A stretch of 64,000 nt of DNA, from positions 20,292-84,291 of the forward strand of contig CANPYJ010000001.1 in assembly GCA_947588275.1 (NCBI GenBank), given 5' to 3'. Shown piece after piece: positions 8,012 through 17,468 of the stretch. Each line of letters opens with the position of its first letter. Within the stretch, counting starts at the first letter, position 1. The position numbers and the translations under genes were made by a program. The DNA is from an uncultured Alphaproteobacteria bacterium (GTDB taxonomy: Bacteria; Pseudomonadota; Alphaproteobacteria; RF32; CAG-239). Below the pieces are notes generated by a model that had not been told where the DNA came from, searched no databases, and saw only the letters and a list, made by a program, of their open reading frames with translations.

Positions 8012-8221
8012 TTAAGGATTTTGTTGCAAACAGCGCAAAATATATACCCGAATGGCGCTTGAGAGATTGGCTTGCGAACGTTGGGCGTCAATTTCGGTAA
8101 TCAGGGCGTTCAGACTCATTTGCCGCGCCGCCGCAAGTTTTTTGAGCTCGTCATAAAACTCATCTTCCAGACAAATGCTGGTAGAGTGGCGATTGGCAAT
8201 AATGACCGAGATTTTACGCAT
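8012..8221 (-). CDS. ribbon-helix-helix (Arc/CopG/MetJ-like) DNA-binding protein, 69 aa from MRKISV
   Basis: N-terminal beta-strand KISVIIANRHSTSICLEDEFYDELKKLA typical of RHH. Overlaps sspB stop by 8 nt. Confidence 0.5.
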   Translation of the reverse strand: MRKISVIIANRHSTSICLEDEFYDELKKLAAARQMSLNALITEIDAQRSQANLSSAIRVYILRCLQQNP

Positions 8222-8681
8222 TTTTGTTGCGGTATTCGTCAATGGAGACAACCGTTGCCGCACCGGAGGCCTTCTTGAGCACTTCCGGTTCGCCAGTCAA
8301 GGATTCGTCGCGTGCCGGCATATTGTGGCTGTTGCTGAAACTTAGGGCAAATTTGGCGTAAGGATCGGCAAAATAGGTAATGGCATCATAGGGAATCCGC
8401 AGCGTTTGGGGGATGCCGCCAAAACTTAAATCGACTTCAAAATAAGTCGGGCTGACCATCAAGTTGGCAAATTGATGCTGCAAAACGATGGTCATTTCTT
8501 CCGGATATTGGTCTAAGAGCGGCGCCGAAATTCGAGCGTCGGGATGATTGGTCTTGAAAGTGATATAAAAATGGTGTTCGCCGGGCAGGCCGTCCTCGGC
8601 CACAATTTTGAGGGCGCCGATAACCACGTATTTCAGTGAGGCCTCCACCAGTTTGTCATAATTAATTTCAAGCGTTTTCAT
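8214..8681 (-). CDS. sspB: stringent starvation protein B, ClpXP adaptor for ssrA-tagged proteins
   Basis: MKTLEINYDKLVEASLKYVV... FYITFKTNHPDARISAPLLDQYPEEMTIVLQHQFANL matches SspB N-domain. RBS AAAAGG upstream. Start set at Met28 of the track ORF. Confidence 0.8.
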   Translation of the reverse strand: MKTLEINYDKLVEASLKYVVIGALKIVAEDGLPGEHHFYITFKTNHPDARISAPLLDQYPEEMTIVLQHQFANLMVSPTYFEVDLSFGGIPQTLRIPYDAITYFADPYAKFALSFSNSHNMPARDESLTGEPEVLKKASGAATVVSIDEYRNKNA

Positions 8682-8703
8682 GCATTTGCCTTTTATCAAA
8701 CCT

Positions 8704-9020
8704 AAAATAACGGGACTTTCCTGTTGCTGAGTAAGTCCCCAACTCCACTTCAGACTAACCAAAGTCCGAAGAATTTGATTTGTTGCGGGCTACACTAAGC
8801 AGCCAATGCAACCGGTGCTACGTTATTATCGTTAGCATTCGTTTTAAGTTGAACCGATAACGGTGGTGTCTCGCCGAACACGACAATCTGTCTTTACTAT
8901 ACCCTGTCAAACCTGTCTCACCCCCTGAAACTCTCGATTGGTGGAGGTGCCGGGTACTGCCCCCGGGTCCAGAATACCTATTTCACAGCGTCTCTGGTGT
9001 CACAGTCGGATTGCTCCGAC
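8704..9020 (-). ncRNA. ssrA: tmRNA (ssrA), circularly permuted two-piece type. Acceptor piece ends ...CACCUCCACCA at 8939. 13-nt intervening segment. Coding piece starts GGGGGUGAGACAGG at 8925. Tag ORF 8836..8795.
   Basis: Minus-strand read gives T-arm-like region + CACCTCC+ACCA, then GGGGGTG (G3:U70 pair) and tag frame GCT AAC GAT AAT AAC GTA GCA CCG GTT GCA TTG GCT GCT TAG = (A)ANDNNVAPVALAA*. Own promoter and terminator. Confidence 0.75.
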
Positions 9021-9027
9021 ACTATAG

Positions 9028-9055
9028 ATTATAAGCAAAATATAAAATTTTTCAA
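9028..9055 (-). promoter_or_regulatory. sigma70-like promoter for ssrA (TTGAAA-16nt-TATAAT on minus strand)
   Basis: Near-consensus hexamers with 16-nt spacer about 8 nt upstream of the acceptor-piece region. Confidence 0.5.
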
Positions 9056-9077
9056 GACATAAGATAACTTGATAATT

Positions 9078-9106
9078 TTTATTGTAATAAATTGCCGCGG
9101 CCGTAT
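9078..9106 (+). promoter_or_regulatory. candidate sigma70 promoter for DHFR-like/thyA/dut operon (TTGTAA-16nt-TATAAT)
   Basis: Hexamers 33 nt upstream of ATG 9139. Divergent from ssrA promoter. Confidence 0.4.
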
Positions 9107-9138
9107 AATCAGAACAGACTATACTAAAGGAGCCTAAA

Positions 9139-9708
9139 ATGACCAAGGTAGCCGTATGGTGCCGCCATCGCGGCGACAATATAATCGGCATCGGACCACG
9201 GATTCCGTGGCATGTCAGCTCGGATTTTAAGCGTTTTCGTCGTCTGACGGCCGGCCAAAACGTTGTTGCCGGCCAAACCACATACGAGACTTTTCCCAAC
9301 CGCACGCTGCCTGACCGCAGGATTTATGTCTTAACGCTCGACTCCGACTACGAGGTTGCGGATTCCGCCAATCATTTTGTCGTGAACGACGTCAACTTTT
9401 TTAAGAATTTTGCCGAGGATATCTATATTTCCGGCGGAGCGTCGGTTTATCGTCTGTTTATGACGACCGACTTGCTGCTTTTGCCCGATATTGTTGTTGA
9501 CTGCGAATATCAGCCTGATTTGCCGGTCGGTCTTGTCGGGACACCGGTAGACATCAGTTCGTGCATAGAGGTTTTGCACCGCCGCTATCGGCAGGTTTCG
9601 CCGGACTATGAGCAAGACGGCATTGTCACCAGAGTATATGTCAAAACCGGCGACTTTGTGGAGCAGTCGGTTCTGAAGCACGTTTTTACCGCTATAGAAA
9701 AGGAGTAG
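9139..9708 (+). CDS. dihydrofolate reductase-like protein (atypical: GQTT in place of GRKT, ~30 aa C-terminal extension)
   Basis: IIGIGPRIPWHVSSDFKRFRRLT..NVVAGQTTYETF..LPDRRIYVLT..ISGGASVY aligns with DHFR motifs IGxxxxxPW, D, F, GG..Y. Confidence 0.65.
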   Translation: MTKVAVWCRHRGDNIIGIGPRIPWHVSSDFKRFRRLTAGQNVVAGQTTYETFPNRTLPDRRIYVLTLDSDYEVADSANHFVVNDVNFFKNFAEDIYISGGASVYRLFMTTDLLLLPDIVVDCEYQPDLPVGLVGTPVDISSCIEVLHRRYRQVSPDYEQDGIVTRVYVKTGDFVEQSVLKHVFTAIEKE

Positions 9709-13610: not shown

Positions 13611-16600
13611 ATGTTTTATCATTTGCAAAGATGCATCGCAATTTTGCTTTTGGCGGCATTTACGACGGTGTATGTGATAATGCCGGCACATGCGTGGTCA
13701 CACCGGCTGTCGCCCTACGATTTTTCGCAAATGTACAATATGGCTGCGCGCGGCGACAAACCGCGCTTGGCGGCGGCCATTGCCCGCGGTCTCAACATCA
13801 ACGCTGTCAACGAAAACGGCGACACCGGTTTGTGCGTTGCGGTGCGGCGGCGCGATGTTCGCGCCTATCACACGTTTAGAGCGGTCGGCGCCAATCCGCG
13901 GCCGGATTGTTCGTGGTCGATTCCCTATTTCAACAATTTTGTTAATGCCGATTATGTCCGCGCGGGCGCCGTCTATGAAACAGGCTCTTACTATGCTGCC
14001 GATGTTCCCAGCGATTATACCGGCCTGATGCAAGATTTGGTAGTCGGCGGCCTTATTGTCGGAGGCATAGTGGCGCTTTGGCCTCACGGTGGAAGTCACC
14101 ATAAGAATCCTTGCGCAGAAAACCCTTGTAGTGCAGGCTGTTTCGTCAATCTCCAATGTCTTGAAGACGAAGTTTGTACTCAAACCAACAGTTGCGGCGG
14201 TTGTGAGAAATGCGAGGCAAAATGTACGGTGGATCATTGTGCTGCGGGGTGTCCGGATACGGTGGAAGTGACCTGTAAAAGTGGCCAAGAATGCACACAC
14301 TACAACGAATGCGGCGTTTGTGACAGTTGTGACAGCACCTGCAAACTCAACCATTGTGCTGCGGGGTGTCCGGATACCCAGAGCATAGAGTGTCCGGCCG
14401 GTCGTCATTGTACTCAGTACAATGACTGTGGTGCATGCATTCAATGTTCCGGCGCTTTTGTCAAAGAAAACGTGCCTGGCCAGAATACTGAACCTCTTAC
14501 CAAAGACGGTTCGCAGGAAAAGGGAACTTGGGGCGGTATATACACTTCATCCTATAACGTGGATAACAAAGGCAGAATCACTCTTACCGGTGATGGCGGT
14601 TTTGGCATTATGTCTTGTTCCCAAGAAAGTGAACAAAATTGTCTTGATGGCGACGTTCGCGCCGGTCCAAATATCACCAACGGCGGTGAAATCAGCATCA
14701 CCGGCAAGAAAGGCACCGGCATTTTTGCCACCACACCGGGAAGCAACGGCAGCGGCACCTACAATTCCGGCACGTTGACCAACAGCGGCAATATCACCAT
14801 CACCGGCAACGACGGCAACGGTATGACCCTTTTAGGCCATGGCAATATTAACAACACCGGCAATATCACCATGACAGGGGAAATGACTCTGCGTGGCGAA
14901 GATACGTCCAATCCGCATCATCCCGATGCCGATGAAGGCTATCATCCCCGCCGCAACAGCGCCATTTATTGGGATAATACATCTTTGGTGAATTCTGACG
15001 GATCTGCCGGCAACCATATGAAGTATACAATTCCAAATGCCACAAAATACACCATTAAAAATCAAGGGGCGATAAATATAACCGCAGACGTTGATCATAG
15101 TCGGGAGGGACTTTCGTTCAAGTATCCCAGTGTCCGAGGAATCAGCGTGAGGTTTAATTCTTTGACTAGTGCAAACGATACGATAGAAGTTGATAATTAT
15201 AACAACATCACCATTCATGGGAAACTTAAGAATTCTGCCAGCTCGGCATCATCGGACGGCCGCTTCGGCGCCATTGGCATCGAGATTGAGTCATCGGTTG
15301 GTGAACTCCACAATCAAAATGGCAGCATCACCATCGACACCGACTATGGCGGCACGGGCGTATATGTGCGTCCTTCCGAAAATGTAGGCAAAACTTCGAC
15401 GTTTACAGCGGATTTCACCGGCGACATCACCATCGCCAACGGCGGTGCCGGTATCGTTTTTGAGGGACAGAAGCTGGACTATCAGGGCAAAATTTCTGTT
15501 GGCAAGGACAGTCAAAGTAAAGACTCAAGCGCCATAGAGGTTGCTTCCGGTGACGTTAATATCAAGACAAACAGTACCTTGGAAGCCAAAGGAAAGAACG
15601 CATACGGGATTAATGTGATCGAGAAGCTTGGCTCCGGCGAGGGAAATGATCCGAAAATAACCAATAACGGCGCCATTAATGTTTCCGGAGACAATGCCGT
15701 GGGAATTTCGTTAAGCGGCCAAGCTACAGGCACAAACGAAACCGGTGCTAAGATTGAAGTCTCCGGAACTACGAAAGCGTATGGCGTCTATGCAACTCAA
15801 ACCGGTGATGCGGGATTCGAAAACAAAGGCGACATAAACGTCAGCGGCGCCGGAGAAGTCGTCGGCATGTTCGGCGACGGCGAAAATGGAGAAAACGATG
15901 AAACCGTGGTTTTGAAAAACAGCGGAACCATCACGGTGAGCAGCAGTTCTTCAGATCAAGCCATAGGAATGAAAGGCCGCGGTTCCAAGACCACCTTGAC
16001 AAACACGGGTACAATTACGGTAACCGGCGGCAGCGAAGACAAAAAGATGGTGTGTGAAGATGATGCAAAGGGATGTAATGGCGCAATGGGTGCGAGCCTC
16101 GCCGCGTTTGAACTCACCGAGGGCGCCCGTTTGGTCAACAAAGGCACCATTATGAGCGACGGCAGCCTCAATTTTAGTCAAATGGGTGACGGCAGTGGCC
16201 ATGTGGTGGCCGGCAAGGGCAGCCGTTTTAAGGCTGAGTCGGTTTCCGGAAATTTGGAGGCCGGCGCAGATCTGACCACCGGTTCAAATGCCGACAATTA
16301 TGTCGAATCCGATGTTGTCGAGTCGCAGGATATTGATTTGCAACTTGATTCCGGTTCGGCAATGTTTGACGCTCGGCTGAGCCGCAAAGCGGGCGGATTT
16401 GCCGACATCGTCATGGCGCGACGCAACTTTAACGAAATCCTCCAACACAATGATTTGGCAAATTATTTGGAGCAAAACTATGTTCAAAATAAACGCATAG
16501 ATTTGTATGATCGCCTCAAAACCTATGTCTCTGCAGCCGATTTGGACGCTGCTGCCGAATCTTGGTTCGGGCGCAATTTCATTCCCTTGCTGGCGTGGCA

Positions 16601-17468
16601 GAATCAGCAGCGCATCCGGCACTTTAATCAAACCATGCAAAATCTGGCGCTGGCCGAAACCAACAAGCCCGAGCGCAGTGTCGCCACGTTTGACGGCTAT
16701 TACGCCGAATACGAAGCACGCAAAAACTTTCCCGGCTACGAAGACCGCCTCTCGGGCATCAGCACGCTGTTTGACAAAGATGTCGGCAACGGTCATCGCT
16801 ATGGATTCGGCATCGGCGTATATAATGCTTATGCCGATTTTGACGGCGACGGCAGCCGCCGCGACGTCTTAGTTCAGCTTTATCAGCCGCATGTGTTTGA
16901 AAACCGCGCGGCCGGCGCTGCTGTGATGCCTTATCTCGGCTATGACCGCGGGCGCTATAAGCGTTATTCCGATTGGGGTAAATTCGAACCGGATTTTGAT
17001 GTCTGGTATGGTGGACTCGCCAATCGCCTGTGGCTTAAATATCCGGTCGGCAGCATTCGGATAGAACCGACGGCAGAACTCAACCTGAATGTTGTTCATC
17101 AGGGCAAAATCACCGAAAAACAAGGTGTTGAAGTTGATGCCGACACCGATGTTTCGGTTGAAGCCGGTCTCGGCGCATTTGTCGAACATCGTTCGGATTT
17201 GGGCGAAAGCGGCAAACTCAAACTCCGCGCCGGCGCCATGTATTATCATGAACTCAACGACAACGTCTATGACCGCCGCCGCGCCAAAATGTCCGGCATG
17301 AACGGCAAATATAACATAGGAGGATACGAAACCGACAAAGATTCGGCCTTGTTCAGTGTTCAGTCCGATTATACGGTCGGTCGTTTCAGCGTCTATGGCG
17401 AAGTTCGGCAGTTTGTCGGACATAATGACAACGTGGTCTACAATCTCGGTCTGCGGGTGGCTTTTTAG
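13611..17468 (+). CDS. autotransporter (type Va) protein. Signal peptide, ankyrin-like segment, hydrophobic segment, cysteine-rich triple repeat (CAAGCPDT..C..YN.CG.C), Gly/Asn/Thr-rich beta-helical passenger, C-terminal beta-barrel translocator ending ...LGLRVAF.
   Basis: N-terminal MFYHLQRCIAILLLAAFTTVYVIMPAHA. ANK-like GLNINAVNENGDTGLCVAV. 26-nt exact DNA repeat at 14235-14260 / 14352-14377. GNITITG-type repeats. Last ~280 aa alternate hydrophobic residues and end in aromatic F. Confidence 0.8.
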   Translation: MFYHLQRCIAILLLAAFTTVYVIMPAHAWSHRLSPYDFSQMYNMAARGDKPRLAAAIARGLNINAVNENGDTGLCVAVRRRDVRAYHTFRAVGANPRPDCSWSIPYFNNFVNADYVRAGAVYETGSYYAADVPSDYTGLMQDLVVGGLIVGGIVALWPHGGSHHKNPCAENPCSAGCFVNLQCLEDEVCTQTNSCGGCEKCEAKCTVDHCAAGCPDTVEVTCKSGQECTHYNECGVCDSCDSTCKLNHCAAGCPDTQSIECPAGRHCTQYNDCGACIQCSGAFVKENVPGQNTEPLTKDGSQEKGTWGGIYTSSYNVDNKGRITLTGDGGFGIMSCSQESEQNCLDGDVRAGPNITNGGEISITGKKGTGIFATTPGSNGSGTYNSGTLTNSGNITITGNDGNGMTLLGHGNINNTGNITMTGEMTLRGEDTSNPHHPDADEGYHPRRNSAIYWDNTSLVNSDGSAGNHMKYTIPNATKYTIKNQGAINITADVDHSREGLSFKYPSVRGISVRFNSLTSANDTIEVDNYNNITIHGKLKNSASSASSDGRFGAIGIEIESSVGELHNQNGSITIDTDYGGTGVYVRPSENVGKTSTFTADFTGDITIANGGAGIVFEGQKLDYQGKISVGKDSQSKDSSAIEVASGDVNIKTNSTLEAKGKNAYGINVIEKLGSGEGNDPKITNNGAINVSGDNAVGISLSGQATGTNETGAKIEVSGTTKAYGVYATQTGDAGFENKGDINVSGAGEVVGMFGDGENGENDETVVLKNSGTITVSSSSSDQAIGMKGRGSKTTLTNTGTITVTGGSEDKKMVCEDDAKGCNGAMGASLAAFELTEGARLVNKGTIMSDGSLNFSQMGDGSGHVVAGKGSRFKAESVSGNLEAGADLTTGSNADNYVESDVVESQDIDLQLDSGSAMFDARLSRKAGGFADIVMARRNFNEILQHNDLANYLEQNYVQNKRIDLYDRLKTYVSAADLDAAAESWFGRNFIPLLAWQNQQRIRHFNQTMQNLALAETNKPERSVATFDGYYAEYEARKNFPGYEDRLSGISTLFDKDVGNGHRYGFGIGVYNAYADFDGDGSRRDVLVQLYQPHVFENRAAGAAVMPYLGYDRGRYKRYSDWGKFEPDFDVWYGGLANRLWLKYPVGSIRIEPTAELNLNVVHQGKITEKQGVEVDADTDVSVEAGLGAFVEHRSDLGESGKLKLRAGAMYYHELNDNVYDRRRAKMSGMNGKYNIGGYETDKDSALFSVQSDYTVGRFSVYGEVRQFVGHNDNVVYNLGLRVAF

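Follow-up and report, generated by a model that had tools for sequence, protein, structure and literature searches.

The minus strand of the window, the 64,000-nt stretch of DNA analysed here, carries an ssrA gene in circularly permuted form, and we put at about 95% the probability that it is the functional ssrA of an uncultured alphaproteobacterium, probably a gut-associated one. It is an intact and ordinary alphaproteobacterial two-piece tmRNA gene in which every structural element is conserved. In Alphaproteobacteria the two-piece tmRNA rescues stalled ribosomes and tags unfinished proteins for destruction. The observations that directly support this identification are the sequence itself and its reproducibility, the covariance-model matches, a structure that is conserved and covaries among relatives, and the synteny of the locus.

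Architecture of the permuted gene

According to an Rfam scan of the whole window, the alpha_tmRNA model (RF01849) matches at 9059..8709 on the minus strand with 181.1 bits (E 1.3e-50, gathering score 50) over model positions 1-355 of 355, and the tmRNA_permuted model (RF04321) matches at 9001..8795 on the same strand with 131.8 bits. The clan-best model at the locus is alpha_tmRNA. Its score ranges from 156 to 288 bits in 14 of 14 sampled related loci, and the 181 bits of the window lie at the low end of this range. The only other RNA matches of the scan in the window are two tRNAs, and a second tmRNA was not detected in the 64 kb. The initial annotation, made from the sequence alone, had proposed a circularly permuted two-piece tmRNA and had named covariance models as a check; the full-length match to the permuted alpha model bears this out, with all the listed elements lying where they had been placed.

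On the minus strand the promoter is followed by the acceptor piece with its CCA, a 13-nt spacer and the coding piece, which starts with GGGGGUG (Table 1). This is the permuted order, with CCA (8941..8939) first, then GGGGGUG (8925..8919) and then the tag (8836..8795). A one-piece gene as described by RF00023 would have the acceptor 5' strand first and CCA last, whereas here CCA lies 13 nt upstream of GGGG. The acceptor 3' end at 8949..8939 reads CACCTCCACCA, the intervening segment at 8938..8926 reads ATCGAGAGTTTCA and the 5' end of the coding piece, GGGGGTGAGACAGG, begins at 8925, all on the minus strand and all as initially annotated. The CCA end and the GGGG end form the predicted 7-bp acceptor stem, in which GGGGGUG pairs with CACCUCC and the third pair is the G:U expected for G3:U70. 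No non-canonical pair occurs in this stem in the model alignments, and neither a one-piece fold nor a failure to form the acceptor stem, the two outcomes that had been named as speaking against the gene, was seen.

Table 1. Features of the ssrA locus and of the adjacent sspB gene, in positions of the window
Feature	Position	Strand	Sequence and remarks
Sigma-70-type promoter	9028..9055	-	TTGAAA 9055..9050, 16 nt, TATAAT 9033..9028
Acceptor piece	8939..9021	-	about 83 nt; 5' end placed from the promoter
5' hairpin	9020..9005	-	GUCGGA-GCAA-UCCGAC; GCAA tetraloop in the window gene
P2 5' strands	9001..8997; 8992..8985; 8977..8970	-	GACAC; GACGCUGU; GUAUUCUG; from the Rfam alignment
T-arm	8966..8950	-	CCGGG-GGCAGUA-CCCGG; from the Rfam alignment
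Acceptor 3' strand	8949..8943	-	CACCUCC; whole 3' end including CCA reads CACCUCCACCA (8949..8939)
Discriminator and encoded CCA	A8942; 8941..8939	-	read from the sequence
Spacer (intervening segment)	8926..8938	-	13 nt, AUCGAGAGUUUCA
Coding piece	8703..8925	-	about 223 nt; 3' end placed from the hairpin and U-rich tail
Acceptor 5' strand	8925..8919	-	GGGGGUG; piece opens with GGGGGUGAGACAGG
P2 3' strands	8906..8899; 8891..8888; 8885..8882; 8881..8877	-	CAGGGUAU; ACAG; UGUC; GUGUU
Pseudoknot 1 (PK1)	8851..8876	-	precedes the resume codon
PK1 S1	8876..8873 with 8864..8861	-	CGGC with ACCG; closing pair C8873.A8864 is a mismatch
PK1 S2	8870, 8869, 8867..8865 with 8855..8851	-	GA-ACC with GGUUC
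Tag frame	8795..8836	-	resume codon GCU 8836..8834; stop TAG 8797..8795
Post-tag hairpin	8748..8771	-	CUUCGGACU 8771..8763, loop UUGGUU, AGUCUGAAG 8756..8748
3'-terminal hairpin	8703..8740	-	GGGACUU 8739..8733 / AAGUCCC 8718..8712; tail GUUAUUUUA 8711..8703
sspB, 155 aa	8214..8681	-	Pfam PF04386 SspB, E 2e-36; outside the RNA gene

The ssrA promoter scores 11/12 in the promoter scan and is the best site in 8100..9300. The promoter region lies inside the Rfam alpha_tmRNA model, and transcription would be expected to start near 9021. Among the matches listed, 67 of 110 relatives have a promoter-like site scoring at least 9/12, the -10 hexamer ending 54-58 nt before the T-arm in 60 of these 67, and the commonest -35 element is TTGAAA. 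Both the score and the conserved position uphold the near-consensus promoter TTGAAA-16-TATAAT (9055..9028) that had been annotated. Back-to-back with it, in the same AT-rich gap of 110 nt, lies another promoter-like site, TTGTAA-16-TATAAT at 9082..9109 on the plus strand (10/12), which faces folA-thyA-dut.

In the related loci among the matches listed, the spacer is 3 to 235 nt long and lacks any conserved sequence, as one would expect of a segment that is discarded; by analogy with known permuted tmRNAs, we infer that it is removed when the precursor is cut in two. At the extremes it reads TTT in L053, measures 5 nt in L010, L014, L054, L064, L081 and L091, and reaches 235 nt in L089. With a spacer of 3 nt, CCA nearly touches the first G of the coding piece, and the action of RNase P and of 3' trimming on such a linker is puzzling.

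Conservation of structure and tag

Relatives were collected by exact match to the 32 nt of the T-arm and acceptor strand. At least 119 species-representative genomes contain this 32-mer, nearly all of them with an alphaproteobacterial label. Among the matches listed, the hosts comprise many gut and rumen MAGs, and also SAR116, Anderseniella, Aestuariivirgaceae, Acidocella, Pelagibacterales and Rickettsiales; the nearest are L083 and L033, at about 84% identity over the gene, and the flanks of the window are collinear with those genomes at 70-76% DNA identity. The use of the gene as a taxonomic marker for Alphaproteobacteria, suggested at the outset, is sustained by the clan-best alpha model, by the hosts of the 32-mer and by the collinear flanking genes. 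Several alphaproteobacterial tmRNA contigs sit in foreign bins, namely L001, L061, L111 (Bacteroidaceae), L107 ([Ruminococcus] gnavus), L047 (Eubacteriales) and L076 (Desulfobacterales); these conflicts probably reflect misbinned contigs or mislabelled bins.

For the analysis of covariation, the spacer-excised sequences of 107 distinct relatives among the matches listed were aligned with MAFFT. The T-arm and the acceptor stem are invariant by construction of this set and therefore give no covariation information, which the Rfam model supplies. Across the 107 relatives, 98-100% of the pairs at each position of the outer P2 helix (9001..8997 with 8881..8877) are canonical, with 2-4 pair types per position. 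In the inner P2 helix (8977..8970 with 8906..8899) the outermost of the eight pairs is canonical in 70% and the other seven in 82-100%, and up to six types occur. Controls in a register slid by one column gave much lower values at most positions. Since MAFFT shifts the register of the terminal hairpins between subgroups, these were assessed by a stem search in each sequence against shuffled controls. The 5' hairpin is kept in nearly every relative (57 distinct stems, modal length 5-6 bp versus 4 in the shuffles), as is the 3' hairpin (35 distinct stems, modal length 6 bp versus 3).

A blind search for helices in the coding piece was too noisy, because the relatives, picked by an exact T-arm, are too conserved in PK1, which was judged by targeted pair tables instead. 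We assigned the PK1 stems ourselves, guided by RF04321. In the window gene, S1 has three canonical pairs and the C.A, which the RF04321 alignment flags, and S2 has five pairs with one bulge. At the closing pair of S1, 43 sequences have U-A, 39 have C-G and 13, the window gene among them, have C.A. Covariation is perfect at the S2 pair 8869-8852, where 58 sequences have G-C, 49 have A-U and none has a broken pair; the PK1 pairs that covary among the relatives are those numbered 137-146 and 141-158. For the post-tag hairpin, RNAalifold predicted nine pairs from 35 sequences, eight of them with compensatory double changes. A pairing of its loop UUGGUU with an upstream AAUCAAA was considered and dropped, as inspection of the alignment by eye showed that it is not kept in relatives. 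The joining helices, PK1, the post-tag hairpin and both terminal hairpins are maintained, most of them with compensatory changes.

The codons of the tag (GCT AAC GAT AAT AAC GTA GCA CCG GTT GCA TTG GCT GCT TAG) translate from the resume codon to ANDNNVAPVALAA followed by a stop, and the added tag would therefore be (A)ANDNNVAPVALAA. This agrees with the tag frame first annotated at 8836..8795, with its TAG stop and its ...LAA ending. Seven related species genomes among the matches listed have the identical tag (L015, L033, L037, L040, L078, L083 and L110), and ARAGORN reads it in five of the seven.

The hairpin at the 3' end had initially been annotated as a terminator at 8740..8704. Its 7-bp stem and its tail, with 6 U in 9 nt, are present as described, which leaves that label half standing, for the hairpin is structural, the terminator scan did not call it and the tail is not kept in relatives, in which 0 to 8 of the nine bases behind the hairpin are T (6 in the window gene). 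Its loop of 14 nt holds an invariant GCAACAG. RNAalifold suggests a pseudoknot, without compensatory change, in which upstream UGGAG (8747..8743) may pair with CUCA (8731..8728) of the loop; the conserved GUGGGG upstream of the hairpin appears as GUGGAG in the window gene. The hairpin is a conserved structural part of the RNA family and more than a terminator, and it may double as one in this lineage. Two copies of the motif GCAACA are present in the coding piece on the minus strand, at 8782..8776 right behind the stop codon (GCAACAAA) and at 8728..8722 as the GCAACAG of the 3' hairpin loop, and both copies are conserved in relatives.

Detection by ARAGORN and genomic setting

ARAGORN with permuted tmRNA detection had been proposed as a check, and here the expectation was disappointed even at relaxed thresholds. 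Version 1.2.41 reports only the two tRNAs in the window and misses the tmRNA, and on 8501..9300 it reports nothing even at -ps80. The length of the spacer was rejected as the cause: ARAGORN finds relatives whose spacer is also 13 nt long, and most whose spacer measures as little as 3 to 7 nt, and it overlooks variants of the window gene to which 2 to 40 nt had been added. Chimeras made with L083, a relative that it does find, narrowed the fault to two 20-nt blocks, and in all 32 combinations of the five block differences detection returned only when both C8873 and C8841 were changed to U. The former base makes the C.A at the closing pair of PK1 S1, and the latter is situated five nucleotides ahead of the resume codon. 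The two variants occur naturally, the C.A being found in 12 other species and the C8841 base also in L040, which is likewise missed. In all, six relatives with a complete gene escape ARAGORN: L010, L091, L026, L040, L016 and L037. As two bases account for the miss and both variants are natural, we regard it as a false negative of the heuristic and not as evidence against the gene. Annotation pipelines that use ARAGORN only would list this genome and a few relatives as lacking ssrA, and covariance models detect the gene easily.

The 459-nt intergenic region between folA and sspB is 100% identical in three independent metagenome assemblies (DRR848763, DRR848829 and ERZ27060014), which also contain the exact SspB protein; the deviant bases are therefore real. 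We considered whether the locus is a decaying or non-functional permuted tmRNA pseudogene, with a working copy elsewhere in the genome, as the ARAGORN miss, the PK1 mismatch together with the deviation 5 nt before the resume codon, and an Rfam score below that of most relatives might suggest. This is very improbable, as the helices of the tRNA-like domain are all intact, the tag frame is intact and the same as in seven related species, the promoter is near consensus, and the two deviations recur, the C.A in 12 other species and the C at -5 in L040. Moreover, the gene keeps a conserved syntenic position, is identical in three samples, and is the only tmRNA detected in the window. We therefore retain the reading of a functional ssrA.

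Upstream of ssrA, and divergent from it, lie folA, thyA and dut; downstream follow sspB on the same strand and, further out, genes for a hydrolase and an acetyltransferase, trmJ, genes for a transporter and an autotransporter, parC and mltB. These flanks consist of chromosomal housekeeping genes and are syntenic with uncultured Alphaproteobacteria, mostly from gut samples. In the same window, an ORF of 1285 aa (13611..17468, plus strand) carries an autotransporter beta-domain at its C-terminus (PF03797, E 8e-22), along with a weak BigA-like domain. We did not find smpB in the 64-kb window with an approximate E. coli query, a weak test that has little bearing on the genome outside the window.

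Because tmRNA genes are frequent integration sites (PMC11915505), the locus could in principle belong to a phage or a genomic island that carries a tmRNA gene or part of one, or could be a duplicated attachment site that an integration into ssrA left behind. A 78% identical ssrA copy is indeed found in L123, the record MT836065.1 (1..13291), an unannotated sequence from human faeces labelled 'UNVERIFIED: Bacteriophage sp.'. This record, however, is collinear with the window over thyA (82% amino-acid identity)-folA-ssrA-sspB-hydrolase, which identifies it as a fragment of a bacterial chromosome, apparently that of a related alphaproteobacterium, and not of a phage. Housekeeping genes stand in conserved order on both flanks of the window gene, the locus has no plasmid match, and the longest repeat of an ssrA segment in the window is a 15-nt chance match. 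Neither an integrase nor a direct repeat of the 3' part of ssrA bounds an island beside the gene. A mobile origin is thus exceedingly unlikely, and a chromosomal ssrA is the reading that we keep.

The start codon of sspB lies 31 nt behind the 3' hairpin of the tmRNA on the same strand. The closest solved structures to the 155-aa SspB include 2NYS (AGR_C_3712p) and 2QAS/2QAZ ('SspB Protein' / 'Hypothetical protein', E about 1e-27 over residues 7-135). The latter pair we take to be the Caulobacter SspB-alpha of Chien et al. 2007. SspB tethers ssrA-tagged proteins to ClpXP (PMC3985003).

Among the matches listed, 93 of 119 related loci have an sspB homologue downstream of ssrA in the same orientation, and in 84 of the 93 it starts at most 900 nt from CCA (median 303 nt). 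In 12 of the 26 loci without an sspB match there is too little downstream sequence to tell. The linkage extends across most tag groups, but neither the Acidocella-type nor the Rickettsiales loci show it. Where it is present, sspB starts a median of about 62 nt from the loop motif. The promoter scan found no promoter-like site on the same strand between the ssrA promoter and sspB in the window. While the linkage itself is observed, co-transcription by read-through would be our reading of the sequence: we tentatively suggest, with more doubt than confidence, that ssrA and sspB form one transcription unit in most Alphaproteobacteria, in which the 3' hairpin would be a leaky terminator and read-through would supply the sspB mRNA. 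A precedent may exist in Streptococcus pyogenes M1UK, where read-through of the ssrA terminator into the downstream gene is reportedly the topic of a preprint. If the suggestion is true, the tag-specific adaptor would be supplied in step with tmRNA synthesis, and the arrangement is a small lead on the co-expression of the tagging RNA and the proteolysis adaptor. A text search of the open literature, which does not include the likeliest papers (Lessner et al. 2007, Keiler et al. 2000), returned no description of the alphaproteobacterial ssrA-sspB adjacency.

Proposed mechanism and comparison with known systems

We propose that the strong sigma-70 promoter would give rise to a single precursor comprising the acceptor piece, the 13-nt spacer and the coding piece. 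Enzymes of tRNA processing would cut this precursor, RNase P acting 5' of G8925 and a 3' activity trimming to the encoded CCA at 8939, which would release the spacer and leave two RNAs, one of about 83 nt and one of about 223 nt, joined through the P2 helices and the acceptor stem of 7 bp. The tRNA-like domain, in which the A73 discriminator is present, would be charged with alanine via the G3:U70 pair. Together with SmpB, the charged tmRNA would enter the empty A site of a stalled ribosome, and translation would restart on GCU 8836, appending (A)ANDNNVAPVALAA. ClpX would then read the C-terminal LAA of the tag and SspB, from the gene directly downstream, its N-terminal ANDN, so that tagged proteins would be degraded by ClpXP with the aid of the neighbouring SspB. 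The cleavage into two pieces, the alanylation, the dependence on SmpB and the proteolysis of tagged proteins would be expected here by analogy with the family.

Could the transcript instead remain in one piece, with its acceptor stem closed, and serve a role other than trans-translation? A spacer of only 13 nt, and of down to 3 nt in relatives, would suit such an RNA. Without a free CCA 3' end, however, there would be no charging, and the alanine identity pair, the discriminator, CCA, the context of the resume codon and the LAA-ending tag are all conserved. The spacer, unconstrained in length (3 to 235 nt) and in sequence, also fits a segment that is discarded. We give an uncut transcript hardly any credence and prefer the two-piece tmRNA.

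For this genome, the presence of ssrA indicates a trans-translation system. The gene is also a dependable marker that places the contig in Alphaproteobacteria, within a group of uncultured lineages, most of them from the gut, with the tag ANDNNVAPVALAA in common. The known view of tmRNA is unchanged by our analysis; of mild interest are the false negative of ARAGORN and the tight, widespread ssrA-sspB arrangement.

The permuted form and its processing by tRNA enzymes are well documented, and the form is confined to Alphaproteobacteria, a betaproteobacterial group and cyanobacteria (PMC11915505; PMC3985003), the same three lineages to which the initial annotation had confined permuted ssrA. The tmRNA database of 2025 from the Williams group contains 11,946 permuted sequences (PMC11915505).

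The window gene resembles RF01849 and Caulobacter in its permuted order, in the joining of the pieces by the acceptor stem and P2, and in having PK1 before the tag, and it shares with RF01849 the terminal hairpins and a promoter inside the family model. The ssrA of Caulobacter crescentus, reportedly described by Keiler, Shapiro and Williams in 2000, is the prototype of the two-piece tmRNA. Its tag, AANDNFAEEFAVAA, and that of the window, ANDNNVAPVALAA, are both of the ANDN...AA type. In contrast to RF01849, with a consensus spacer of about 32 nt, the window spacer is short at 13 nt, S1 of PK1 contains the C.A mismatch, and the score is among the lower ones of the family. RF04321 matches the tRNA-like domain and the tag region over its full length, and nothing of substance differs; this model itself deliberately omits the lineage-specific terminal regions. 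SspB-alpha is reportedly the alphaproteobacterial adaptor that delivers tmRNA-tagged proteins to ClpXP (Lessner et al. 2007), and the 155-aa protein of the window, which like it matches PF04386 and 2QAS/2QAZ, is the predicted adaptor for this tag. With the one-piece RF00023 and with the permuted forms of the betaproteobacterial (RF01850) and cyanobacterial (RF01851) type the window gene has in common the function, the tRNA-like domain, the resume codon and the logic of the tag; a one-piece gene of RF00023 places GGGG first and CCA last, while in the window CCA comes 13 nt before GGGG.
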